The notes beneath the pieces were generated by a model. That model was given only the letters and a program-made list of their open reading frames with translations, was not told where the DNA came from and did no database searches. From Candidatus Omnitrophota bacterium (lineage in GTDB: Bacteria > Omnitrophota > Gorgyraeia > Zapsychrales > JANLHA01), in assembly GCA_963662715.1 (NCBI GenBank), contig OY759724.1:2650662-2714661 (forward strand): 64,000 nucleotides of DNA, in the 5' to 3' direction. How positions within the stretch are numbered: position 1 is the stretch's first letter; the number at the start of each line of letters is the position of its first letter. A program made the translations under genes and the position numbers. Positions 20,304 through 30,427 of the stretch are shown in pieces.

Positions 20304-21011
20304 ATGCTTTCAGACAAGATTCTGGTTATTGACGACGATCCCAAAATTATCCAGACGATTGATTTGATTTTCCGAGAATACGACATCATTGGTTTTCAGG
20401 ACGGGAAAAGGGCCATAGAATATCTAAAAAAACCTAATAATGTCCTGATCGTTCTGCTTGATGTCTGCATGAAGACGATCAACGGACTGGACGTTCTGCA
20501 GGAGATTAAAAGGATCGACAAAAATATTGCCGTTATTATGATGACGGCTTTCGGAACCAAGGAAGTCGTGCTTGAAGCCTTGCGGGGGCATGCAGATGAC
20601 TTCTTGGACAAGCCTTTCCATGTTGATGATTTAAGATACAAAGTGAAGATTCATCTTAAAGACCGGATGTTGAAATGTCATGTCGGAGAGAACAGCCGGG
20701 TTGAACGGATCAAACGTTATATTGAAAGAAATTCTGACGTTGTCTCTCTTGAGCATGTCGCGGAAGAGTTGAATTTAAGCCCCCAGTATGTCAGCCGGTT
20801 TTTTAGAGAGCACAATATTAAGGGATTCAGGGATTATAAAATTGAAATTAAGCTCACCCGGGCAAAACATTTGCTTAAAAATACAACTTTCTCCGTAAGC
20901 CAGATTGGAGAACAGCTGGGGTATCAGAACCCCGAATCATTTATGAGAATTTTTAAGAAGAACACCCAGGTCACCCCTTCGCAATTCAGAGAACGGGCCC
21001 TGGATTCTTAG
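20304..21011 (+). CDS. Response regulator with REC domain and AraC-type HTH output
   Basis: REC motifs are present ('ILVIDDDP', 'LLDVCMK', 'KPF'). A C-terminal AraC HTH is 'SQIGEQLGYQNPESFMRIFKKNTQVTPSQFR'. Confidence 0.85.
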   Translation: MLSDKILVIDDDPKIIQTIDLIFREYDIIGFQDGKRAIEYLKKPNNVLIVLLDVCMKTINGLDVLQEIKRIDKNIAVIMMTAFGTKEVVLEALRGHADDFLDKPFHVDDLRYKVKIHLKDRMLKCHVGENSRVERIKRYIERNSDVVSLEHVAEELNLSPQYVSRFFREHNIKGFRDYKIEIKLTRAKHLLKNTTFSVSQIGEQLGYQNPESFMRIFKKNTQVTPSQFRERALDS

Positions 21012-21274
21012 GCCGTCAGGATTTCCTCCCGGTCCCGAATCAGTTTTTCCTCAGGTCATTTGAGGGCAATAACGGATTTTTTGCATTTATTCCCCTGCTG
21101 TGAGCATGAATTTTTAGGGGAGTTTAAGAAAAGTCAGTTTAAAGCCTTCTTGTCCTATTTACATATTTTAAAAACGTATTATAACTATTTTATGAACGCA
21201 GCCGTAGGCCGCGGATTAACTTTGTCCTATGAAGGTGAGAATGATCTATCGTTCCCATATCAAGGAGATGAGAC

Positions 21275-22753
21275 ATGTTGAAACCTATTAAAACGCTTTT
21301 AATTGAAGATGACCAGAGCAGTGCGGATCTTATTTCGGAATTCCTGCGACAAAATCATTGCCGGGCCTCAGTTTGTCACGTCGGTTCAATCAAGGAGTCG
21401 GTCGATTGCCTTAAAAATGAGACGTTTGATGTGATACTGCTGGATTTGACCCTCCCGGACAGCGAGGGCATGAATACCCTTGATAGCATTACTCGGGTCA
21501 ACACGGTTCTGCCTATCGTTATTTTAACCGGCCTTAATGACGAAAGCCTTGCTGTAGAAATGATCAAAAAGGGAGCCCAGGATTATTTGGTGAAAGGGCA
21601 GTTCAACAGTTCATTGCTGATGAGGGTGATTCAATATGCTATTGAGCGAAAAATTATCGAACAGGCGCTTCGTATTTCCGAGCAGGAATGGAGAAAAACG
21701 TTTAATGCCATTTCTGACAGGATCTTTATTCAGGATGAGGATTTTCGAATAGTAAAAATGAACAAAGCCTTTGCCCAGACCATGAAATTGAACCCGGAAG
21801 ATATTTTCGGAAAAAAATGCCATGAAGTCCTGCACGGGAGTGATCAGCCGATACCGCAATGTCCCTGCGTTAAGACCCGCTGCGATGGAATCTCTCACTG
21901 TGAAGAAATCCTGGATACGGAAACCGGGCAGTCTTTCCAGGTCACAACGTCACCGATTATCGAAAATAGTCTTTATAAAGGCGCTGTTCACATCGCCCGG
22001 GATATCACATCTCAAAAAAAGACGGACGAAGAATTGAAGGATATTCAGGCCCAGCTGCTGCAATTGGAGAAGATGGCTGTCCTTGGTCAGATGTCCGCGG
22101 GCATAACTCATGAGATTAAGAACCCTTTGTCGACGATTTTATTAAGTATAGACTGCATCAAAACAAAAATGGGAGGGAAGGACCCTATCCAGATAAAAGA
22201 GCTGCTCAATCTTCTGGAAGAGTCGGCTCAGCGTATTAATAAAGTCATCAACGAATTATTAAGCTTTGTGCGAACTCCGAATATCAAGGTCCAGAGGGTT
22301 AATTTGCACAGGGCGATAGACACGGCTATTTCCCTGCTGGACAATAAGGCCAGGCACAAGAACGTGATTTGTGAAAAATATTATTCGAAGGAAGATATTG
22401 AAATTAATGCCGATAAACTGCTGATAGAACAGGTGTTTTATAATCTGCTTTCCAACGCCGTTGATGCCATGGAACCCGGGGGACGCATCAAATTGAGAAC
22501 AGAATGCCCGGGGATGTCCGGGGGAGAAATGGTTGATGTCGAAATCTCCGATACCGGATGCGGCATGACAGACGAGGAAATCGTTAAAATTTTTGAACCT
22601 TTCTTTACCACCAAGGATTATGGCAAAGGGACGGGGCTTGGATTAAGTATCGTCAAAATGGTCGTGGAAAAACATAAAGGTTCTATTAACGTGGTCAGTC
22701 AAAAAGGTTCCGGCACATCCTTTACTGTCAGCCTTCCGGTCAGTGCCGGTTAA
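21275..22753 (+). CDS. Hybrid sensor: REC - PAS - HisKA - HATPase_c histidine kinase
   Basis: An N-terminal receiver ('LLIEDDQ', 'LLDLTLPD') is followed by a PAS-like region. The H-box 'ITHEIKNPLSTI' and ATPase boxes ('LLSNAVDA', 'DTGCGM', 'GTGLGLSIVK') are present. Confidence 0.85.
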   Translation: MLKPIKTLLIEDDQSSADLISEFLRQNHCRASVCHVGSIKESVDCLKNETFDVILLDLTLPDSEGMNTLDSITRVNTVLPIVILTGLNDESLAVEMIKKGAQDYLVKGQFNSSLLMRVIQYAIERKIIEQALRISEQEWRKTFNAISDRIFIQDEDFRIVKMNKAFAQTMKLNPEDIFGKKCHEVLHGSDQPIPQCPCVKTRCDGISHCEEILDTETGQSFQVTTSPIIENSLYKGAVHIARDITSQKKTDEELKDIQAQLLQLEKMAVLGQMSAGITHEIKNPLSTILLSIDCIKTKMGGKDPIQIKELLNLLEESAQRINKVINELLSFVRTPNIKVQRVNLHRAIDTAISLLDNKARHKNVICEKYYSKEDIEINADKLLIEQVFYNLLSNAVDAMEPGGRIKLRTECPGMSGGEMVDVEISDTGCGMTDEEIVKIFEPFFTTKDYGKGTGLGLSIVKMVVEKHKGSINVVSQKGSGTSFTVSLPVSAG

Positions 22754-23240
22754 AAAAGGGGAATATATGCCGTTCAGGAAAATTGTTGTTATTGATGATG
22801 AAAAAGATATCTGTCGTCTCATGAGAAGCATTTTAACCGAACTGGGCGATTATGAAGTCTTTGTCGCTTACAACGGGTCGATGGGGATGGCCCGATGCCT
22901 GACAGAGAAACCCGATATCATTTTTCTCGATTATGTTATGCCCCAGGAGAAAGGCAGCACGATGATTAAGCTTTTTAAGAGAAATAGGATCACCCAAAAT
23001 ACGCCTATTATTGTCATGAGCGGGTTAGGGGAAGCCATCACATTCGAAGAAAAGGAGTCATGGAGTTGGCTGACGGATTATTTGGATAATTTGGACCCCG
23101 ACCAGGAATTGGATGCGGTTAAAATTCCCGAAGAGATCGCCCGGTCCCTGGGCATTCGAGTCTACCTGCCTAAGCCGTTTAACAAAGAAGCTATTGCCCT
23201 GGCCCTTTCCTATATCCTGACGAAAGATGCCTCCGTATAG
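22743..23240 (+). CDS. Stand-alone receiver (REC) domain protein
   Basis: The sequence 'KIVVIDDEKDICRL', 'IIFLDYVMP', 'LPKPF' fits the REC fold. It overlaps the upstream kinase stop, suggesting translational coupling. Confidence 0.7.
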   Translation: MPVKKGEYMPFRKIVVIDDEKDICRLMRSILTELGDYEVFVAYNGSMGMARCLTEKPDIIFLDYVMPQEKGSTMIKLFKRNRITQNTPIIVMSGLGEAITFEEKESWSWLTDYLDNLDPDQELDAVKIPEEIARSLGIRVYLPKPFNKEAIALALSYILTKDASV

Positions 23241-23510
23241 ATGAATGAGCAAGAAACTGCTTTCCTGCCTCATACATCCTCATAAAAAGTTCCCGTATAA
23301 ATATTACAGATGTTGACGTTCTTCTTTTAAACTCCCAAGGTGCTGAAAGTTTTCATTTCCTGGTGATTACCTGCTCGAAAGGTCTTTGTTTTTGATAATC
23401 AATCCTAAGAGGCGGAGGCGGCGCTTTTGAATAAAATACTTCCTAATTTCTTTGTTATGGTTTAAACTACAATGGGCTTTTGATAACTTAAATTTTTATT
23501 AATATTAATA

Positions 23511-24311
23511 ATGAAATATTTCATTTTAATACTATTTAATGCATTTTTGCTTTTTATCTTTATATCACAAGGGACTTTTGTCCAGGCGTCCATTCTTTAT
23601 CAGGATTTTGAGCCTAACAACGGCACGCCGGCGAAACCGGCCTCTGATTCTCAAGATCCAGAATATGGCTGGGCTTTTAACGAGGCTGATGCGAGATTAT
23701 CCCTGGATGGAGAACCTGTTCAGGCCGGGCTGTATTCCTGGCGGGTCGGGATCCCCTTTGCTGAAAAACTTGACTCGGGCAGTGGAATCGCCTCCCAAAC
23801 CCAGACCTATAATATGAATTTTATCCCGGAATGCTTTGATCGTTTAACATTCTGGATCTATTCCGAACCCCTGCATCCCGGGGCGCATACCGTCATGGTT
23901 AAATTTTTTGACCACGGAAAATATCATGATGAAGGTGTCGGGGTCTGGACCGCGGGGAAGGCTGCGCCGAATCAATGGGTTCGGCTGGAAATATTATTTG
24001 ATCAACTGCCCGCGGACTTTGACCTGGCCCATGTTGACAAAATTGAGTTTTTTAATTATTGGGACGGCATTTACTATTATGACGACATTCTCATTGCTTC
24101 CGCGCAGGGAGAGGGGGAAGATGCGGCTTGCCTGGAGACCGAAGGGTATGTCGTTTGTCATGAAGACCCTTTGAGGTCAGACAAGACGAAGAGTCTTTGT
24201 GTTTCTGTTTACAGCGGTCATGGCGAACAGTTGACGGATTATTCATATATCAAAAGCAAGAAACGGTTAAGGATTTTTGACCGGTTGCAGTCTTCGAAAG
24301 AGAAGAATTGA
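23511..24311 (+). CDS. Secreted single-module protein carrying the same CBM4/9-like domain found duplicated at the N-terminus of the GH5 enzyme
   Basis: A signal peptide is followed by the motifs 'YQDFEPNNG', 'GWAFN', 'SWRVG', 'GSGIASQTQT', 'DRLTFWIYS', 'VKFFDHG' and 'YYYDDILI'. These are colinear with the repeats at 9060-10200. Confidence 0.6.
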   Translation: MKYFILILFNAFLLFIFISQGTFVQASILYQDFEPNNGTPAKPASDSQDPEYGWAFNEADARLSLDGEPVQAGLYSWRVGIPFAEKLDSGSGIASQTQTYNMNFIPECFDRLTFWIYSEPLHPGAHTVMVKFFDHGKYHDEGVGVWTAGKAAPNQWVRLEILFDQLPADFDLAHVDKIEFFNYWDGIYYYDDILIASAQGEGEDAACLETEGYVVCHEDPLRSDKTKSLCVSVYSGHGEQLTDYSYIKSKKRLRIFDRLQSSKEKN

Positions 24312-24329
24312 AAAGGGGACGAGTGGCCC

Positions 24330-24935
24330 ATGGATGAACAGGTCCTGTTGGAAAATTGCCTGGAGGGGAATAAAGCAGGGTGGGATGAATTCATGGAGAA
24401 ATATTCCCCGCTCATTTACGACTCCATCTTAAGAACGTTCCGCCGCTTTAATTACCAGGCTACACACGAGATGCTGGCTGACGTTCATCATGATTTCATC
24501 GTTTATCTGCTGGAGAATGATCATAAGATTTTAGGAGGTTTTGAAGGCCGCAATGGATGCCGATTTAAGCATTATCTGAGAACGGTTGTGATCCGTAAAA
24601 CCATTGATTTCTTGAGAAAGTCCAAGCAGGGCGGGCGTCCCCAGCGGGTGATGAGCATCAATTCGCAGAATGAGGCGGCCGTGCATCAGGCCCTCCCGAT
24701 CACGTCTTTTGAGCAGGATATTGATACCCGGTTAATTCTGCAGGCCGCGAATGAGATTTTTGATGAATTAAACAGCAACGAAAAAGATTTATGGCGGATG
24801 TTCTTTTCAGAAGAAATGAATCCTAAGGATATTGCTTTTCATCTGGGGATATCGGTTGACTGCTTCTATGTCCGAAAACAAAGATTATTAAGGAAACTCA
24901 AGACTTTAGCCGCGCGTAAGAATTTAACCTTTTAA
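24330..24935 (+). CDS. ECF-type sigma-70 family RNA polymerase sigma factor
   Basis: A region-2-like N-terminus and a region-4 HTH ('NSNEKDLWRMFFSEEMNPKDIAFHLGISVDCFYVRKQRLLRKLK') are present. The size is ~200 aa. Confidence 0.65.
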   Translation: MDEQVLLENCLEGNKAGWDEFMEKYSPLIYDSILRTFRRFNYQATHEMLADVHHDFIVYLLENDHKILGGFEGRNGCRFKHYLRTVVIRKTIDFLRKSKQGGRPQRVMSINSQNEAAVHQALPITSFEQDIDTRLILQAANEIFDELNSNEKDLWRMFFSEEMNPKDIAFHLGISVDCFYVRKQRLLRKLKTLAARKNLTF

Positions 24936-24951
24936 TGTTGCGCATTGCCGG

Positions 24952-25635
24952 GTGACAACGCATATGATCAATAATAATGAGCCTCAAAACGGAGCAGAGC
25001 TCACGGATGAGATGCTGACGAGTTACGTTGAAGGCCTTCTGCCTGATGCCGACCGACAGCGGGTCGAACGTTTTATCTCTCAAAATGTCTTCCTGCATGA
25101 GGAGGTGGAGGCTTTAAAGTCCGTTTATCAGGCCCAGCAGGCCGAGGGACTTAATGTGGTCCCTGATGACATAACGGAAAGGACACAGAAGATACTCGGG
25201 GAATATTTTCAGACGGATGTCCTGAAAATTGTCGTATCATGGGCGGACAATATATTCAGAGTTATCAAGAGCACCGGAGTCCTTCTCGTGGACCCTCAGG
25301 CTGCGGTTAAGCATGCTTTGCGGGACTCCGTGGCCAAGAGGAATGCCGCCGCTGTTCTGCAGAAGGATTTTCATAGGGCCCGGCTGATTGTCGAACTGTT
25401 CCCCCAGGGGGATGCCGCCATGACAGCGACAGTTATCCTTAAGAATTTTCAGGGACAGCTTGTCCAGACAATTCTGCGGATCACTTTGAAAGATCCTCAG
25501 GGAGAGCTGGAATCCCAGGATGTCAGTTCGGGGTACGCTGAGTTTGCGAATATCAAACCAGGAGAGTATCAGATCGATATCGCAGATTCCGGTCGTCGCA
25601 TTGGAATGATATCGCTACAAATAAACCATTTATGA
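24952..25635 (+). CDS. Putative soluble anti-sigma factor
   Basis: An N-terminal anti-sigma-like motif 'EMLTSYVEGLLPDADRQRVERFISQ' (cf. LSAYLDGEL...) is present. The gene immediately follows the sigma gene. No TM helix was recognised. Confidence 0.5.
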   Translation: MTTHMINNNEPQNGAELTDEMLTSYVEGLLPDADRQRVERFISQNVFLHEEVEALKSVYQAQQAEGLNVVPDDITERTQKILGEYFQTDVLKIVVSWADNIFRVIKSTGVLLVDPQAAVKHALRDSVAKRNAAAVLQKDFHRARLIVELFPQGDAAMTATVILKNFQGQLVQTILRITLKDPQGELESQDVSSGYAEFANIKPGEYQIDIADSGRRIGMISLQINHL

Positions 25636-27737
25636 TGGCAAGTTCTACTTTTATATTGGAAGTTATTATTGCTCGGAAGGCTCTGGCCATGAGTCTTTAT
25701 GAACGCGATTCCACCATGCGTCATTTTGATGAGGTCCTTCCCAATCAGCTGGTTATTGAACATTTATGTGCGGAAGCGATCCGTCTTATGAACAAGACGA
25801 ATGTCTTAGGTCCGGCATCCGTAGGGTTATCATTCGAGTTGAAGAAAATAGGGCGTGCTCTTTTTGACCAATTGTTGAGTGAAACAGTCAAGGTCAAGTT
25901 GATCGACTCTCCGGTAGAGAACCTGATCTTTCTTATGGATGAGGCTTTAATCCCCATCCCTTGGGAATTGTTGCATAACGGTCAGCAGTTCCTCTGTCTG
26001 CAATACAATGTGGGCCGCTCGGTCCGTACAAAGCGCCCTTCCTCGAAAACCGCCGAAAGAACCAGCTCATCGCCGATAAAAATGCTTGTCATGGCCGATC
26101 CCATCGGGGATCTGGATGAGGCCCGGGCGGAGGCGTTTAATATCCGTCAGGAGACAGACCAGAAAAAACATTTTTTTTCTGTGACGACGAAGTTAAAGAA
26201 AATAACAGTTGATTATGTCATCAAAAATTTGCAGGACTACGATATTGTTCATTTTGCCGGTCATAATGAATTTGACTACCAGAATCCCCTGAACAGCGGG
26301 TGGAAATTTTCCGACGGTCTATTCCGGGTTGAGGACGTTATTAAAATGAAGGGCGGGGCTGCTATGCCGCTGCTGATATTCTCCAACGCCTGTCAATCGG
26401 CGGTTTTATTGCGTGGGCAAAAAGTCATCGGAGAAACAGGCCGGATATTTTATGGCATTGCGAATGCCTTTTTGCTGGCCGGAGTGAAGCATTTTCTGGG
26501 AACGTTATGGGAAATCCCGGATCAGGTTGCGGCTGTTTTTTCCCGCGAGTTTTATGCGCAGATCTGTGAGGGCATGCCGATCGGGACGGCGATAAGAGAA
26601 GCGCGTTTAAAGATTATCCGGGTCTTTGGAGAAGATACGGTCATCTGGTCCTCCTATGTTTTATATGGGGACCCTTCGGCCCCGGTTGTTTCTCCGGAAA
26701 TGCTGGCAGCGCCGTCAGGGGAATCGGCTCCGGTTTTTACTCCGGTCTCGAAACAGATAGCCATATATGTCGGGATAGGATTGTTCACGCTTTTGGCGTT
26801 GGCCGTCTTGGAGAATGTCTCGCGACAAAGATCCCGGCAGTCTCTTATCCCGGACGTGAATGCCGTATCAGCACAAAAAAAGGTCGAGAAAAAACAGCCC
26901 AAAACATCTCCCCAAAAGAAAGACGTCACGCAGGAGGATATTCATGCTGTTTTCTGGCCCCCGGCGGAAAAAATTAATCAGATAATTCATGATCTTAATC
27001 TTGACCTCGGCAAGGTTGAGGATCCCAAGGTCCTTTACGAGTATTATCGTCTTTTGATAGATTCCTATGCCATGGTGAATCAATATCGTCTGGCAACGCT
27101 TTATACGGAAGCTGTCATAGAATTGGCTAAGGCTCAGGACGATAAAGATGTTTTGGTCGAGGCGTATCTGGAGTGCGCCGATGTCCTGCTGGAAGAATTT
27201 GTGTATTTCCGGCTTCCTATCGAATCAGTTGAGGAAAGAGGCAAGTTCGGGGATGCCGTCAGTAAACAGATTTTAACGAGGATAACAGGCTATTATCAGG
27301 AGGGCATGTCCCTGACGGTCGGGAAAGAAAATGTCCGGCAGCTTCTCCGGGCTTATCAGGGATTAGGAAGAGTCTATAAATATCACGACGACAACAAATC
27401 GGCGATTGCTTTTTACGAGAAAGCCGTAGAGATACTTGAACAAAGTCCCCAGCTGCCCCGCAGCGAAGTGTATCAGCTGGCCTATGATTATGTGGAGTTA
27501 GCCACTCTTTATCTGGAGGAACATAAGGCTTTTGACAGGGCCCTTGTATATTTAAGCCGTATGGTCAGGCAAATGAATGGCATCTCTCCCACGTCTTTGG
27601 AGGACCATGTCATTTTAAAACCCGTTATCCGGAAATTTGATCTGCTGCTCCGCGATCTTCATCAAAAAGGCTTGTCATCCACGCAGTTTTATCCTAAGGC
27701 TATGCAGTTATACCGGAATCTGAACACAAAACGGTAA
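25632..27737 (+). CDS. CHAT-domain (caspase-like) protease fused to a single TM helix and a C-terminal helical/TPR-like domain
   Basis: The CHAT catalytic dyad context is present: 'IVHFAGHNEF' (His), 'LLIFSNACQSA' (Cys) and 'ANAFLLAGVKHFLGTLWEIPD'. A TM helix 'IAIYVGIGLFTLLALAVL' and a Lys-rich linker follow. The start codon overlaps the anti-sigma stop (ATGA). Confidence 0.75.
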   Translation: MMASSTFILEVIIARKALAMSLYERDSTMRHFDEVLPNQLVIEHLCAEAIRLMNKTNVLGPASVGLSFELKKIGRALFDQLLSETVKVKLIDSPVENLIFLMDEALIPIPWELLHNGQQFLCLQYNVGRSVRTKRPSSKTAERTSSSPIKMLVMADPIGDLDEARAEAFNIRQETDQKKHFFSVTTKLKKITVDYVIKNLQDYDIVHFAGHNEFDYQNPLNSGWKFSDGLFRVEDVIKMKGGAAMPLLIFSNACQSAVLLRGQKVIGETGRIFYGIANAFLLAGVKHFLGTLWEIPDQVAAVFSREFYAQICEGMPIGTAIREARLKIIRVFGEDTVIWSSYVLYGDPSAPVVSPEMLAAPSGESAPVFTPVSKQIAIYVGIGLFTLLALAVLENVSRQRSRQSLIPDVNAVSAQKKVEKKQPKTSPQKKDVTQEDIHAVFWPPAEKINQIIHDLNLDLGKVEDPKVLYEYYRLLIDSYAMVNQYRLATLYTEAVIELAKAQDDKDVLVEAYLECADVLLEEFVYFRLPIESVEERGKFGDAVSKQILTRITGYYQEGMSLTVGKENVRQLLRAYQGLGRVYKYHDDNKSAIAFYEKAVEILEQSPQLPRSEVYQLAYDYVELATLYLEEHKAFDRALVYLSRMVRQMNGISPTSLEDHVILKPVIRKFDLLLRDLHQKGLSSTQFYPKAMQLYRNLNTKR

Positions 27738-27828
27738 TATTTGTTGTGCAGCATTAAAACAGGAAGATCCAGCGTGGGGGGCAGAAGAATTTTTCCCGGG
27801 ACCAACAGATGCAGAAATGATTTAATGT

Positions 27829-28428
27829 GTGAATTCTATGACGGAAGCGATCAGCAGCCTACAAACACTGCAAAATTCCATTGTTTATGACTTTTATACT
27901 TCCTGCTGGTTTCATAATCTGTTATCCCAGCCGGCCGTGAAGGAATGCTTTGCCCGGCGTGCCCCGGAAACAACGGAAGCATATCAGAGGTACCGGAAAA
28001 TATCTCAAGTGACCCAGCTTCCGCTTCTTGGTGTCTGTCTGTCCCTGATACTGGTTTTTATAAGTCGTCATTATGCTTTTTTGGTCATAAGCTGCGGGTT
28101 TTTGCTGCTTTATTTCAGGTTTGTGAGAAATCAACGGCAGATTCTGGCCCGTTTGTCATCTGTTTTGCTCCGGCAGGAATTTGCAGTAGCTGATTTTTCC
28201 GGGAGAACCCTGTACGAAATTACCGAACACCTGGGCCGTCAATATGGCATCCCGTCGATGGTGGACACTATATACAGATCGGACAATATCTTAAGAAGAT
28301 TATTTTTGCTGGGGTTTTTTCTGCCTTGGCCGGATTTTGGCAGGAGCGTTCTGATTTTTTTTGTTGTTTATTTTTCCTGCAAATATTTGCTGAATTCGCG
28401 GATCGGCTATCGCATCTTGGCCGGATAG
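27829..28428 (+). CDS. Hypothetical integral membrane protein
   Basis: Several hydrophobic helices are present; no recognisable family. Confidence 0.4.
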   Translation: MNSMTEAISSLQTLQNSIVYDFYTSCWFHNLLSQPAVKECFARRAPETTEAYQRYRKISQVTQLPLLGVCLSLILVFISRHYAFLVISCGFLLLYFRFVRNQRQILARLSSVLLRQEFAVADFSGRTLYEITEHLGRQYGIPSMVDTIYRSDNILRRLFLLGFFLPWPDFGRSVLIFFVVYFSCKYLLNSRIGYRILAG

Positions 28429-28459
28429 AAAGATTTTTATTCAGCGCAGCCGGGGTATG

Positions 28460-30427
28460 TCAGAAAAGATAAGCGCCCCAGAAGGAAAGGATAAGGACAA
28501 ACAGAATCGCGAGTCCCCATTTGCATGTTGTGAAAAGAAAAGCAAAGAATATGACCGGATGCAGAATGCTTATGGAGGCGTGAGTGAAATGTTTGGTCTG
28601 AAATACGGGCCAGTAGCAGGAGAAGTTCCGCCAGTTCAGGCTGAGCATCCGCTCTTGTTGCAGCATATCTTTATACAATTGGGTTCCTGGCAGAGGCGTC
28701 AGAAGAGAGACAGCGGTCCAGTCCGGAAAAATACGGAAACAACACAGCCAATATTTGAAGATGTTTTTTATCCTGTCTGAATCAAAGCCGATGATGAAAT
28801 GTCCTTCAATATGTATTCCCGCCTTTTTAATCCTTTTCGTATATTCAATAAACTTGTCTGCCAGGGCGAACTTCCCTCCTTGAGACTTTTCCAGGGAAGC
28901 GCTGGTGATTTCATACCCGATCAGCAGCCCCTGACAGCCGCTTTCTTTAGCCAATTTCAGCAGGGGTTCGTTGCCTCCGATATCGATACTACAGTTGGCA
29001 ATCCATTTCATTTTTAACGGTTTCAGGGCCGTGAACAATTGTTTGGCATAGGCCGGGTCAGAATAAATGTTGTTGTCAATAAAGCTGACGGTCGTGTATT
29101 TGGTCCTTACTCTTTCAAGTATTCTGACGACCTGTTCCACCGTCCTGTGCCCGAACCGGCCTTGGCACAGAGCGGAAATGCAGCAAAAGGAACAGTGGAA
29201 CTTACAGCCATAACTCGCTTCCAGATAATAACGGATAATATCCGGGGAGGCGTTCAGAAGTTCATTGTAAATCCTGTCGCGGACAGCTTGCGAGGCCGCG
29301 CCGCCCTGATACATTTTTTTGAGGGAATTGTTTTCATGATCCCGAACAACCTCTTCCCAGACACTTTCAACCTCTCCGACCACCACGGCATCGCAGAATT
29401 CCAAAGCTTCATGGGGGACAAAAGACACATGAGGCCCGCCCATGATGACAGTAGAGCCTTTTTGGCGAAAGCCTTTGGCGATACGGTAGGCTTCAAAGCA
29501 GTTGCTGGTAAAGCAGGTGATCGCCACCAATTTCCCGGGGCGGAAGTAAGACGACTGCCAGAAAACTCTTGAAAAGCTGCGGACGGAATAATTCTTAGGC
29601 GTTAAGGCCGAAAGCACGACGAACACCGGCGGATAAAATCGCAGAAAGATAGAGGTTAAGACTTCGATGACAGAGCCTCCTCCCAGGGGATTGATAAGAA
29701 AAAGCTCTTTCTCCGGAGGAGGATTCCGGCTGAAGTAGTCCGTTTTTGAAAAAAACAAAAGGCAGAGATAAACGAATAGAAAAAGGTGCGTATATTTTAC
29801 GATAAATATGAGGCTTAAAGTCAGAAGGGCATGTATTTGCGGTTCTTGTTTTAACAACACGGCACAAGAGATGTTGATAAGGATAATCAGCAGAATCTGG
29901 ACGACTGTCTTCAGAGGTAGCGGAAGGCTTAAAAGCTTGCCGGGAGATGTTTTAAGGAAATATCTCGCAATAATGAGCAGGGTTAAAAATATGAGGCAAA
30001 CGGGCTCCAAAAAAACAGTCCAGTAGGCGTAATCCATGCGCGGGAGGAAGACAAAGGAACAAAACTGTATGCCTAGAAGGAAAATTTGAAAAAAGGTGAA
30101 AAGAAGCCAGGTGCGCTTGATTTGTTCTATGATCAAAGGTCTGGATACGAGATATTCTTTCCCGGAGCACAGCACGGCAAAACAGCCGTATATCCCTGAG
30201 TAAATGATGATTTTTAAAGGCAGTAAGCTCAGGAATATGAAAGGGAAGAGAGACTTGAAAATGCCGGCAGGCAGGAGGATGCTGATGGACGGGATCTCCA
30301 GTAAAAGAATAAGGAAGACGGCGGACATCAGGGAATGAAGAATATTCCAAGTGTCTTTTAACGGATGTTCAGCTGAATTCATGATCAAAAGAATCCGAAG
30401 GCGGCAGATATCTGTCCCCGGGTTCAT
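28460..30427 (-). CDS. Membrane-embedded B12-binding radical SAM enzyme (polytopic N-terminal domain + class B radical SAM)
   Basis: About 300 aa of multiple TM helices are followed by a B12-binding-like segment ('LVAITCFTSNCFEAYRIAKGFRQKGSTVIMGGPHVS'). The radical SAM motif 'CKFHCSFCC' and a 'FIDNN' / GG region follow. Confidence 0.75.
   Translation of the reverse strand: MNPGTDICRLRILLIMNSAEHPLKDTWNILHSLMSAVFLILLLEIPSISILLPAGIFKSLFPFIFLSLLPLKIIIYSGIYGCFAVLCSGKEYLVSRPLIIEQIKRTWLLFTFFQIFLLGIQFCSFVFLPRMDYAYWTVFLEPVCLIFLTLLIIARYFLKTSPGKLLSLPLPLKTVVQILLIILINISCAVLLKQEPQIHALLTLSLIFIVKYTHLFLFVYLCLLFFSKTDYFSRNPPPEKELFLINPLGGGSVIEVLTSIFLRFYPPVFVVLSALTPKNYSVRSFSRVFWQSSYFRPGKLVAITCFTSNCFEAYRIAKGFRQKGSTVIMGGPHVSFVPHEALEFCDAVVVGEVESVWEEVVRDHENNSLKKMYQGGAASQAVRDRIYNELLNASPDIIRYYLEASYGCKFHCSFCCISALCQGRFGHRTVEQVVRILERVRTKYTTVSFIDNNIYSDPAYAKQLFTALKPLKMKWIANCSIDIGGNEPLLKLAKESGCQGLLIGYEITSASLEKSQGGKFALADKFIEYTKRIKKAGIHIEGHFIIGFDSDRIKNIFKYWLCCFRIFPDWTAVSLLTPLPGTQLYKDMLQQERMLSLNWRNFSCYWPVFQTKHFTHASISILHPVIFFAFLFTTCKWGLAILFVLILSFWGAYLF

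Follow-up and report, generated by a model that had tools for sequence, protein, structure and literature searches.

The locus described here lies on contig OY759724.1 of the Candidatus Omnitrophota bacterium assembly GCA_963662715.1, of which we analysed a window of 64,000 nucleotides (nt; positions 2,650,662 to 2,714,661 of the forward strand). All coordinates refer to this window, unless a locus of a relative (L001 and onwards) is named. Three genes on the + strand, found where an initial annotation of this DNA had placed them, encode a sigma factor of the extracytoplasmic function (ECF) type, a soluble anti-sigma factor (ORF2) and a protein that combines a CHAT domain, a single transmembrane (TM) helix and a TPR-like domain. 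In bacteria, signal transduction follows three main routes, and ECF sigma factors make up one of them. The annotation proposed that the CHAT protein is a signal-gated protease that cleaves the anti-sigma. Below we show that the three genes form a conserved module in several phyla, and we argue that a protease of this kind may well control the sigma factor. The trio has the following features (aa, amino acids; pLDDT, predicted local distance difference test):

24330-24935, + strand: ECF (group IV) sigma-70 family sigma factor, 201 aa (TIGR02937)
24964-25635, + strand: predicted anti-sigma factor ORF2, 223 aa (family profile, AlphaFold model; alternative GTG start at 24952)
25006-25209, + strand: predicted anti-sigma domain, residues 15-82 (four helices in the model)
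25291-25350, + strand: flexible loop of ORF2, residues 110-129, DPQAAVKHALRDSVAKRNAA (from pLDDT; carries R120)
25321-25323, + strand: R120 codon CGG of the anti-sigma (codon checked)
25351-25629, + strand: C-terminal beta-sandwich of the anti-sigma, residues 130-222 (model strands, Pfam matches in relatives)
25632-25635, + strand: ATGA overlap of the anti-sigma stop TGA and the CHAT start ATG (sequence)
25632-27737, + strand: CHAT-TM-TPR protein, 701 aa (PF12770, AlphaFold model)
25632-26711, + strand: CHAT protease domain, residues 1-360, predicted cytoplasmic (PF12770, dyad, topology indicators)
26262-26264, + strand: His211 codon of CHAT (codon checked)
26391-26393, + strand: Cys254 codon of CHAT (codon checked)
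26754-26810, + strand: single TM helix of the CHAT protein, residues 375-393, QIAIYVGIGLFTLLALAVL (hydropathy, AlphaFold model)
26931-27716, + strand: all-helical TPR-like repeat domain, residues 434-695, predicted periplasmic sensor (secondary structure of the model, TPR matches)

The sigma gene and ORF2 are adjacent, as annotated, with 28 nt between the sigma stop and the ATG of ORF2 and no overlap. For ORF2 the ATG at 24964 is a more likely start than the GTG at 24952 (the database copy has 223 aa). The overlap of the anti-sigma stop with the CHAT start was confirmed at 25632-25635. A scan of 23100-28600 for sigma-70 promoters and terminators gave fewer sites than shuffled controls. In addition, a bipartite motif 5' of sigma genes, considered as an autoregulatory ECF promoter, turned out to be coding sequence of a syntenic membrane pyrophosphatase gene.

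Conservation of the trio was assessed with two scans. In the CHAT-seeded scan an alignment of the CHAT domain was searched against one genome per species, and the best 80 of 560 relatives were analysed with hidden Markov models that we built ourselves; in the sigma-seeded scan the signature NGCSLASW was searched against metagenomes. The CHAT-seeded set shows the order sigma, anti-sigma, CHAT, colinear, in 60 of the 70 assessable loci (59 scored loci plus L070, whose 346-bp gap passed the filter unnoticed), and the anti-sigma gene lies directly upstream of CHAT in 68 of 74. Among the remaining loci of this set, four have the anti-sigma at a contig edge, four have an anti-sigma without adjacent sigma, six have neither gene and six are not assessable. 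Gaps between the anti-sigma and CHAT genes are mostly -4 to +12 nt, and the -4 (ATGA) overlap of the window recurs in 13 other loci. Results of the sigma-seeded scan are similar: the trio is present in 50 of 52 assessable loci, with 28 further loci cut by contig ends. The two exceptions are a sigma gene without anti-sigma (which has only 473 bp of room) and one clear locus without CHAT.

This linkage is not simple synteny, because clustering of the flanking open reading frames (ORFs) shows that these three genes alone (in 81, 65 and 62 loci) are common to the set, with the next family present in only 25. The closest CHAT relatives (46-48% identity, in metagenome-assembled genomes of Omnitrophota) keep the order secreted protein, sigma, anti-sigma, CHAT. 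Sigma relatives at about 40% identity retain sigma, a ~220-aa protein and CHAT/TPR in other contexts, with neighbours such as ArsP and a giant Laminin_G_3 protein (L007/L008) or ThsB_TIR and helix-turn-helix (HTH) genes (L009). Two anti-sigma relatives (P0132 and P0150) also retain the trio order in differing contexts. According to the record titles the loci belong to Omnitrophota, Desulfobacterales and other Thermodesulfobacteriota, and Nitrospirota, with some labelled Planctomycetales; one record is labelled as an archaeon, the binning of which is doubtful. The module is common in the Desulfobacterales relatives. Whether the three genes occur together outside this genome had been put forward as a check on the proposal, and they do so in several phyla and in differing contexts. 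The trio is a conserved module, far beyond chance.

The window sigma factor matches the sigma70-ECF model TIGR02937 with 61.4 bits (cutoff 42.9) over residues 18-192 of 201; Pfam Sigma70_r2 by itself is weak (14 bits). All 61 module sigmas match TIGR02937. With about 200 aa it has regions 2 and 4 and is without regions 1.1 and 3, the architecture of an ECF sigma. The family carries a signature in region 2, G-x-N-G-C-S-L-A-S-W-L-R, which in the window reads GRNGCRFKHYLR (24540-24580, residues ~71-84). Its cysteine, C77, is near-invariant in alignments of the module sigmas and is an unusual feature of region 2. A special kinship to the CASP-sigma of type III-E CRISPR systems was considered and rejected: the type III-E model NF041236 gives 40.2 bits for the window sigma against a cutoff of 100, and although this NCBIfam model matches 56 of the 61 module sigmas, many generic ECF models match them at least as well.

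For ORF2 a word-index search found no homologue except ORF2 itself. An exhaustive HMMER (phmmer) search yielded 134 representative clusters of related proteins, nearly all full-length (205-260 aa). The zf-HC2 match on the window protein alone is faint (E=0.059), and the same family matches 78 of 124 aligned relatives. When a profile from the 17 closest members was compared to the PDB, the best matches were ChrR, RslA, DdvA (8rlz, 8rot) and RsiW (E 0.0017-0.045), all of which are class I anti-sigma domains; Csx30 was not among the PDB matches of the family profile. The AlphaFold model (mean pLDDT 89.6) places helices at residues 15-22, 28-40, 42-61 and 68-82, mostly with pLDDT above 90, which would give the three-helix bundle plus fourth helix of an anti-sigma domain. 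After them the model has a small sheet, then a loop of lower confidence (110-129) and the beta-sandwich (130-222). By family homology ORF2 is a class I, ZAS-type anti-sigma, so that the sigma-binding type of homology claimed for it was recovered at the family level, and we infer from this that it would bind the sigma factor.

In the ORF2 family the zinc-ligand columns are position 12 (C/H), 37 (H, 84%), 41 (C, 83%) and 44 (C, 84%). The window protein has E12, F37, N41 and L44 at these positions and does not show the H-x3-C-x2-C motif; it is therefore a zinc-less derivative of the ZAS family. The claim that the anti-sigma is soluble agrees with our data, since neither ORF2 nor its family contains a hydrophobic stretch of TM length (median maximum hydropathy of the family 1.13). 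Foldseek on the whole model returned generic Ig/fn3/MG-like folds only, and the C-terminal part of several relatives matches CarboxypepD_reg, prealbumin, SpaA or EMC7 in Pfam. The modelled beta-sandwich may serve to dock onto the CHAT protein. The 'anti-sigma factor' equivalog NF052375 was tried as a family name and rejected: in the member checked the match extends no further than about the first 33 positions of the profile, and the strongest match in the family (E=4.9e-18) is far below what the 100-bit cutoff demands.

Only one residue is invariant across 186 distinct sequences of the ORF2 family: R120, within the motif P-A-x-[VA]-L-R-[SG]. It sits in the least confident block of the model (pLDDT ~70, against more than 90 on either side). 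Several clan CD proteases, such as separase, metacaspases and gingipain R, cut after arginine, which makes R120 an attractive candidate scissile site. The loop that carries it is, on this analysis, a candidate site of protease recognition or cleavage.

The CHAT domain is genuine, as the annotation held: PF12770 matches residues 72-347 with 139.8 bits (cutoff 24) and covers profile positions 2-289 of 289. The His-Cys dyad is present in the motifs HFAGHN (residues 207-212) and SNACQSA (251-257). Conservation of this dyad had been named as a point on which the proposal could fail; His211 and Cys254 are invariant in 120 of 120 CHAT homologues and in 82 of 82 module partners. The invariance of the dyad and its surrounding motifs argues for selection on catalysis, and the protein appears protease-competent. 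Sequence-level comparison of the CHAT protein to the PDB gave no matches. The AlphaFold model (pLDDT 84.4) comprises the CHAT domain (1-360), a long helix (374-402), a disordered linker (404-429) and the helical-repeat domain (434-695), in which TPR_12 and TPR_8 match residues 567-604. Foldseek identifies Csx29 (E=1.4e-07, ~365 aligned columns), separase and SAVED-CHAT as the closest solved folds to the CHAT model, and LGN/Pins TPR and BtubC for the TPR-like domain. The described order of one TM helix followed by a TPR-like domain thus holds, with the helix at 375-393 and the modelled domain at 434-695.

The CHAT protein has no signal peptide, and the CHAT domain begins at residue 1. Hydropathy indicates a single hydrophobic helix at 375-393, which the model prolongs to residue 402. 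A TM helix follows directly after the CHAT domain in almost all module partners, and in all but one no TM helix was detected N-terminal to CHAT. Lys and Arg are more frequent on the CHAT side of the helix than on the other side (family mean 4.3 against 2.5; typically ~5 against 1 per protein). Partners of the Desulfobacterales type (~1050-1100 aa) carry an adenylate/guanylate cyclase domain N-terminal to CHAT, followed by the TM helix, TPR and a CsgG-like segment. The catalytic domains of class III cyclases are active in the cytoplasm, which places the CHAT domain fused to them there as well. The annotated topology, with CHAT inside and the sensor outside, is thereby supported for the family by charge bias, lack of a signal peptide and cyclase fusions. 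In the clade of the window the bias runs the other way, whereas in nearly all other members it is the CHAT side of the helix that is positively flanked. For the window protein the predicted topology therefore rests on homology and the missing signal peptide.

The outer part of the protein varies between partners: in place of this ectodomain, other partners have either a 1500-aa array of TPR repeats or DUF4384 together with a trypsin-like domain. In L054 (5001-8051) the order CHAT, TM, DUF4384, trypsin-like peptidase would put a caspase-like and a serine protease on opposite sides of the membrane. Cyclase-CHAT fusions with a CsgG-like segment after the TPR are found in L028 (4296-7613), L046 (4203-7475) and about 25 similar loci. 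A gene for a FadL/TodX-like outer-membrane barrel often lies immediately 3' of the cyclase-type CHAT genes (17 loci).

From these data we favour, with a probability of about 0.5, a mechanism in which a periplasmic signal gates a cytoplasmic CHAT protease that cuts the anti-sigma and so frees the ECF sigma. In the resting state the anti-sigma would hold the sigma factor, probably docked on the CHAT protein. The TPR ectodomain would sense a periplasmic signal and pass it on through the single TM helix, after which the CHAT dyad would be switched on in the way known from the allosteric activation of Csx29 and separase. The protease might then cut the anti-sigma, with the flexible R120 loop as the most plausible site, and either release the sigma directly or leave the remaining anti-sigma fragment to general proteases. 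The freed sigma would go on to transcribe a regulon that probably comprises envelope-related genes, its own operon among them. One TM receptor-protease would in this way replace the relay of site-1 and site-2 proteases. The mechanism predicts dyad-dependent cleavage at or near R120. Its most specific form, in which TM caspase-like receptor-proteases in several phyla cut a dedicated soluble anti-sigma after the invariant arginine upon a periplasmic cue sensed by a TPR or other ectodomain, with no site-1/site-2 relay, is put forward more tentatively.

A number of observations weigh against cleavage of the anti-sigma. The case for it is built from gene context and analogy, and gene neighbourhood cannot tell regulators from targets of an ECF sigma (PMC7826278). 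Furthermore, some natural loci are incomplete, which shows that the partners need not be linked in cis. An up266-type gene (see below) abuts CHAT in L001, where neither sigma nor anti-sigma is present, and both are also missing from six cyclase-type CHAT loci; conversely, L154 has lost CHAT but retains sigma, anti-sigma and the BNR protein downstream, and in L094 and L095 no CHAT lies next to the sigma/anti-sigma pair. R120 is kept in the anti-sigmas of these three loci that have no CHAT in cis, which weakens the cleavage-site argument, since the residue may be structural or serve another partner. Finally, the Lys/Arg bias is reversed in the clade of the window, with 0-2 residues on the CHAT side and 3-4 on the other ('ENVSRQRSRQ', residues 360-408, 26709-26855). 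CHAT genes without sigma and anti-sigma, and such pairs without CHAT, are also what one would expect if the CHAT-TM-TPR protein were an output of the sigma, co-transcribed with the sigma/anti-sigma pair, that acts on other substrates (envelope, cytoplasmic or itself), with the anti-sigma under another input. The ZAS zinc motif, kept in most family members, could sense redox directly, and the ECF literature cautions that neighbours may be targets (PMC7826278). The window anti-sigma has however lost all four zinc ligands and would thus need another input. Moreover, the order sigma, anti-sigma, CHAT is almost invariant across phyla with differing neighbours, the last two genes overlap or lie a few nt apart, and the CHAT domain and the soluble anti-sigma would share a compartment. 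We judge the output reading unlikely, albeit with enough in its favour to be taken seriously.

The tight gene coupling might instead reflect a stoichiometric complex, in which CHAT is a membrane scaffold or co-anti-sigma that would bind the beta-sandwich of the anti-sigma and tether sigma and anti-sigma at the membrane until a signal frees them by a conformational or partner switch, with no cut. The conserved extra domain of the anti-sigma, which has no obvious role in sigma binding, would fit such a complex, and TPR-CHAT proteins of Craspase are reported to regulate non-catalytically as well. A scaffold would hardly account for a dyad and surrounding motifs that are invariant in every partner (120/120 and 82/82), and we regard it as improbable. 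There is little to suggest that CHAT cleaves the sigma itself, be it activating or destroying, with the anti-sigma as adaptor or protector. Caspase-like cleavage of a sigma has been reported for PCaspase on PCc-sigma of type III-B (10.1101/2023.06.23.546230), and the module sigmas carry the conserved G-x-N-G-C signature with near-invariant C77; yet it is the anti-sigma whose flexible loop holds the single fully invariant residue. Least of all do we expect an anti-phage defence system with CHAT as abortive-infection effector under sigma control, for which the chance seems very slim. All characterised CHAT-sigma circuits are linked to defence, a ThsB_TIR gene lies ~0.7 kb upstream of sigma in L009, and PADLOC reports a weak BovA match (18.5 bits, E=2e-4). 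On the other hand, PADLOC gave no significant match for any of the five proteins: CHAT had only the BovA and a generic TPR match, and the sigma, the anti-sigma and the flanking proteins had none. No CRISPR-like array was seen by Tandem Repeats Finder, which shows only one 41-bp repeat in the window (a dedicated search for interspaced repeats was not made), and the largest ORF in the window, of 1274 aa, is too small for Cas7-11 (gRAMP). The neighbours in the window are two-component regulators, a radical SAM enzyme and a spermidine synthase, and recurrent neighbours elsewhere are of the envelope type (BNR propeller, FadL-like barrel). Signal-gated cleavage of the anti-sigma by CHAT hence remains our preferred explanation.

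The annotation also held that regulated proteolysis of this kind had not been described, which is true in part. In Craspase, the TPR-CHAT protein Csx29 cleaves Csx30, which inhibits CASP-sigma/RpoE (PMC10028731). Here too a CHAT protease would control an ECF-like sigma by cutting its inhibitor, and Csx29 is the closest solved fold to the window CHAT. However, Csx29 is soluble and its TPR precedes CHAT, whereas in the window CHAT comes first, then the TM helix and then the TPR; the Csx29 model NF041237 gives the window protein 15.3 bits against a cutoff of 300. The candidate substrate is a ZAS-type anti-sigma with no Csx30 match, the trigger would be a periplasmic signal rather than target RNA, and the window is without Cas7-11, CRISPR RNA (crRNA) or CRISPR array as judged from ORF size and the Tandem Repeats Finder scan. 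A second comparison concerns CalpL/T/S, where the SAVED-Lon protease CalpL cleaves the soluble anti-sigma CalpT and frees the ECF-like sigma CalpS (10.1101/2024.05.08.593097). Both systems would have an operon-encoded signal-gated protease, a soluble anti-sigma and an ECF-type sigma. CalpL is nonetheless a cytoplasmic, CRISPR-linked protease of the Lon type with a SAVED sensor for cyclic tetra-adenylate, in contrast to the membrane-anchored protein of the CHAT type with a predicted TPR sensor in the window.

DdvA-DdvS of Myxococcus xanthus shares with the module a ZAS-type anti-sigma domain, a TM helix, TPR, CHAT and an ECF sigma partner. One DdvA polypeptide holds the cytoplasmic anti-sigma domain, the TM helix and, in the periplasm, the TPR and a C-terminal CHAT whose active site is incomplete; self-cleavage followed by RseP was proposed as its mechanism, and DdvA-like proteins are reported to be narrowly distributed (PMC11506125). 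In the window, by contrast, anti-sigma and CHAT are separate proteins, CHAT is N-terminal and predicted to be cytoplasmic, and the module occurs in several phyla; the 50 best fold matches to the CHAT model do not include DdvA. The canonical regulated intramembrane proteolysis of RseA/DegS/RseP and RsiW likewise leads from an extracytoplasmic signal through anti-sigma proteolysis to release of an ECF sigma, but the window anti-sigma has no TM segment. No site-1 or site-2 protease was found among the nine genes scanned (20304-30427). In the actinobacterial group ECF54, too, a CHAT-domain protein belongs to the conserved genetic context of an ECF sigma: CHAT, carboxypeptidase or subtilase genes lie nearby, and proteolytic control was proposed (PMC8999054). 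ECF54 lacks any anti-sigma factor (PMC8999054, PMC7826278), while the present module has a dedicated one and occurs in other phyla. Full-text searches, which did not cover most subscription journals, returned no account of a stand-alone module that unites an ECF sigma, a soluble ZAS anti-sigma and a CHAT-TM-TPR protein, although a bioinformatic study elsewhere may mention it. Overall, a CHAT protease acting on a sigma inhibitor (Craspase), an operon of protease, anti-sigma and sigma (CalpL/T/S) and a TPR-CHAT anti-sigma (DdvA) have all been published, and the use of a protease to release a sigma from its soluble anti-sigma is already known; what appears to be undescribed is the stand-alone, non-CRISPR configuration with a TM CHAT protein.

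If the proposed mechanism is correct, the module would be a compact way for an outside signal to cross the membrane, with one protein acting both as receptor and as protease on a soluble anti-sigma. Caspase-like regulatory proteolysis in bacteria would then extend beyond phage defence (Craspase, SAVED-CHAT) into the everyday sensing of the environment, with a reach that includes the poorly studied Omnitrophota, the Desulfobacterales group and Nitrospirota. In the course of evolution, Craspase and other CRISPR-associated CHAT-sigma circuits could have been recruited from modules of this kind. Its interchangeable sensor domains (TPR, giant TPR, DUF4384-trypsin and cyclase fusions) would offer a natural set for study or for protease-gated transcription switches.

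A fourth, co-directional gene, up266, ends 18 nt ahead of the sigma gene. Given this short gap it is probably co-transcribed with sigma and would belong to the same transcription unit as the trio:

23511-24311, + strand: up266, secreted protein of unknown fold, 266 aa (ORF; signal-peptide-like N-terminal helix)

The protein has no Pfam or NCBIfam match, and a distant relationship to CBM_11 was rejected (hhalign probability 3%). Homologues that are 44-65% identical lie 5' of sigma in L002, L004, L005, L007/L008 and L011, and directly 5' of CHAT in L001; L009 and L013 lack the gene. These secreted proteins of ~230-280 aa share the conserved pattern 'YQDFEP.NGT ... YYYDD'. The product of up266 would be an accessory part of the module or else one of its outputs. 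Genes of this type in relatives are:

L001, 5144-5980: up266-type gene
L002, 3871-4689: up266-type gene
L005, 3847-4680: up266-type gene
L008, 4336-5184: up266-type gene
L011, 4739-5422: up266-type gene

A secreted BNR/Sortilin-Vps10-like propeller of ~520 aa recurs 3' of CHAT in a clade of Omnitrophota with partners of ~730 aa. In L154, where the CHAT gene is missing, it directly follows the anti-sigma gene. The propeller genes are:

L076, 8077-9633: BNR propeller gene
L154, 6505-8112: BNR propeller gene
23 other loci: BNR propeller gene

In L094 (1368-2492, - strand) the distant sigma/anti-sigma pair is followed, instead of by CHAT, by a convergent gene with Peptidase_M50 (the site-2 protease family) and CBS. 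The sole defence-type neighbour seen is the Thoeris-like ThsB_TIR gene of L009 (1364-1807), 5' of sigma in 'Candidatus Gygaella obscura'.

Downstream of CHAT, the relatives L002 (8107-11641) and L004 (4011-7570) have a CBM_11 protein, CorA and a ~300-aa protein between CHAT and a membrane protein of 199-210 aa. The window (27738-28428) is without these three extra genes and has the conserved membrane protein at 27829-28428. Upstream, regulators occupy 20304-23240: a response regulator with AraC-type HTH (20304-21011), a hybrid REC-PAS-histidine kinase (21275-22753) and a stand-alone receiver (22743-23240), the gene of which overlaps that of the kinase. The AraC-type regulator and the stand-alone receiver take the same positions in L001. 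On the - strand, 28460-30427 encodes a B12-binding radical SAM protein of 655 aa with a multi-pass hydrophobic N-terminal region of ~290 aa, and its synteny is shared by L001, L002 and L004.

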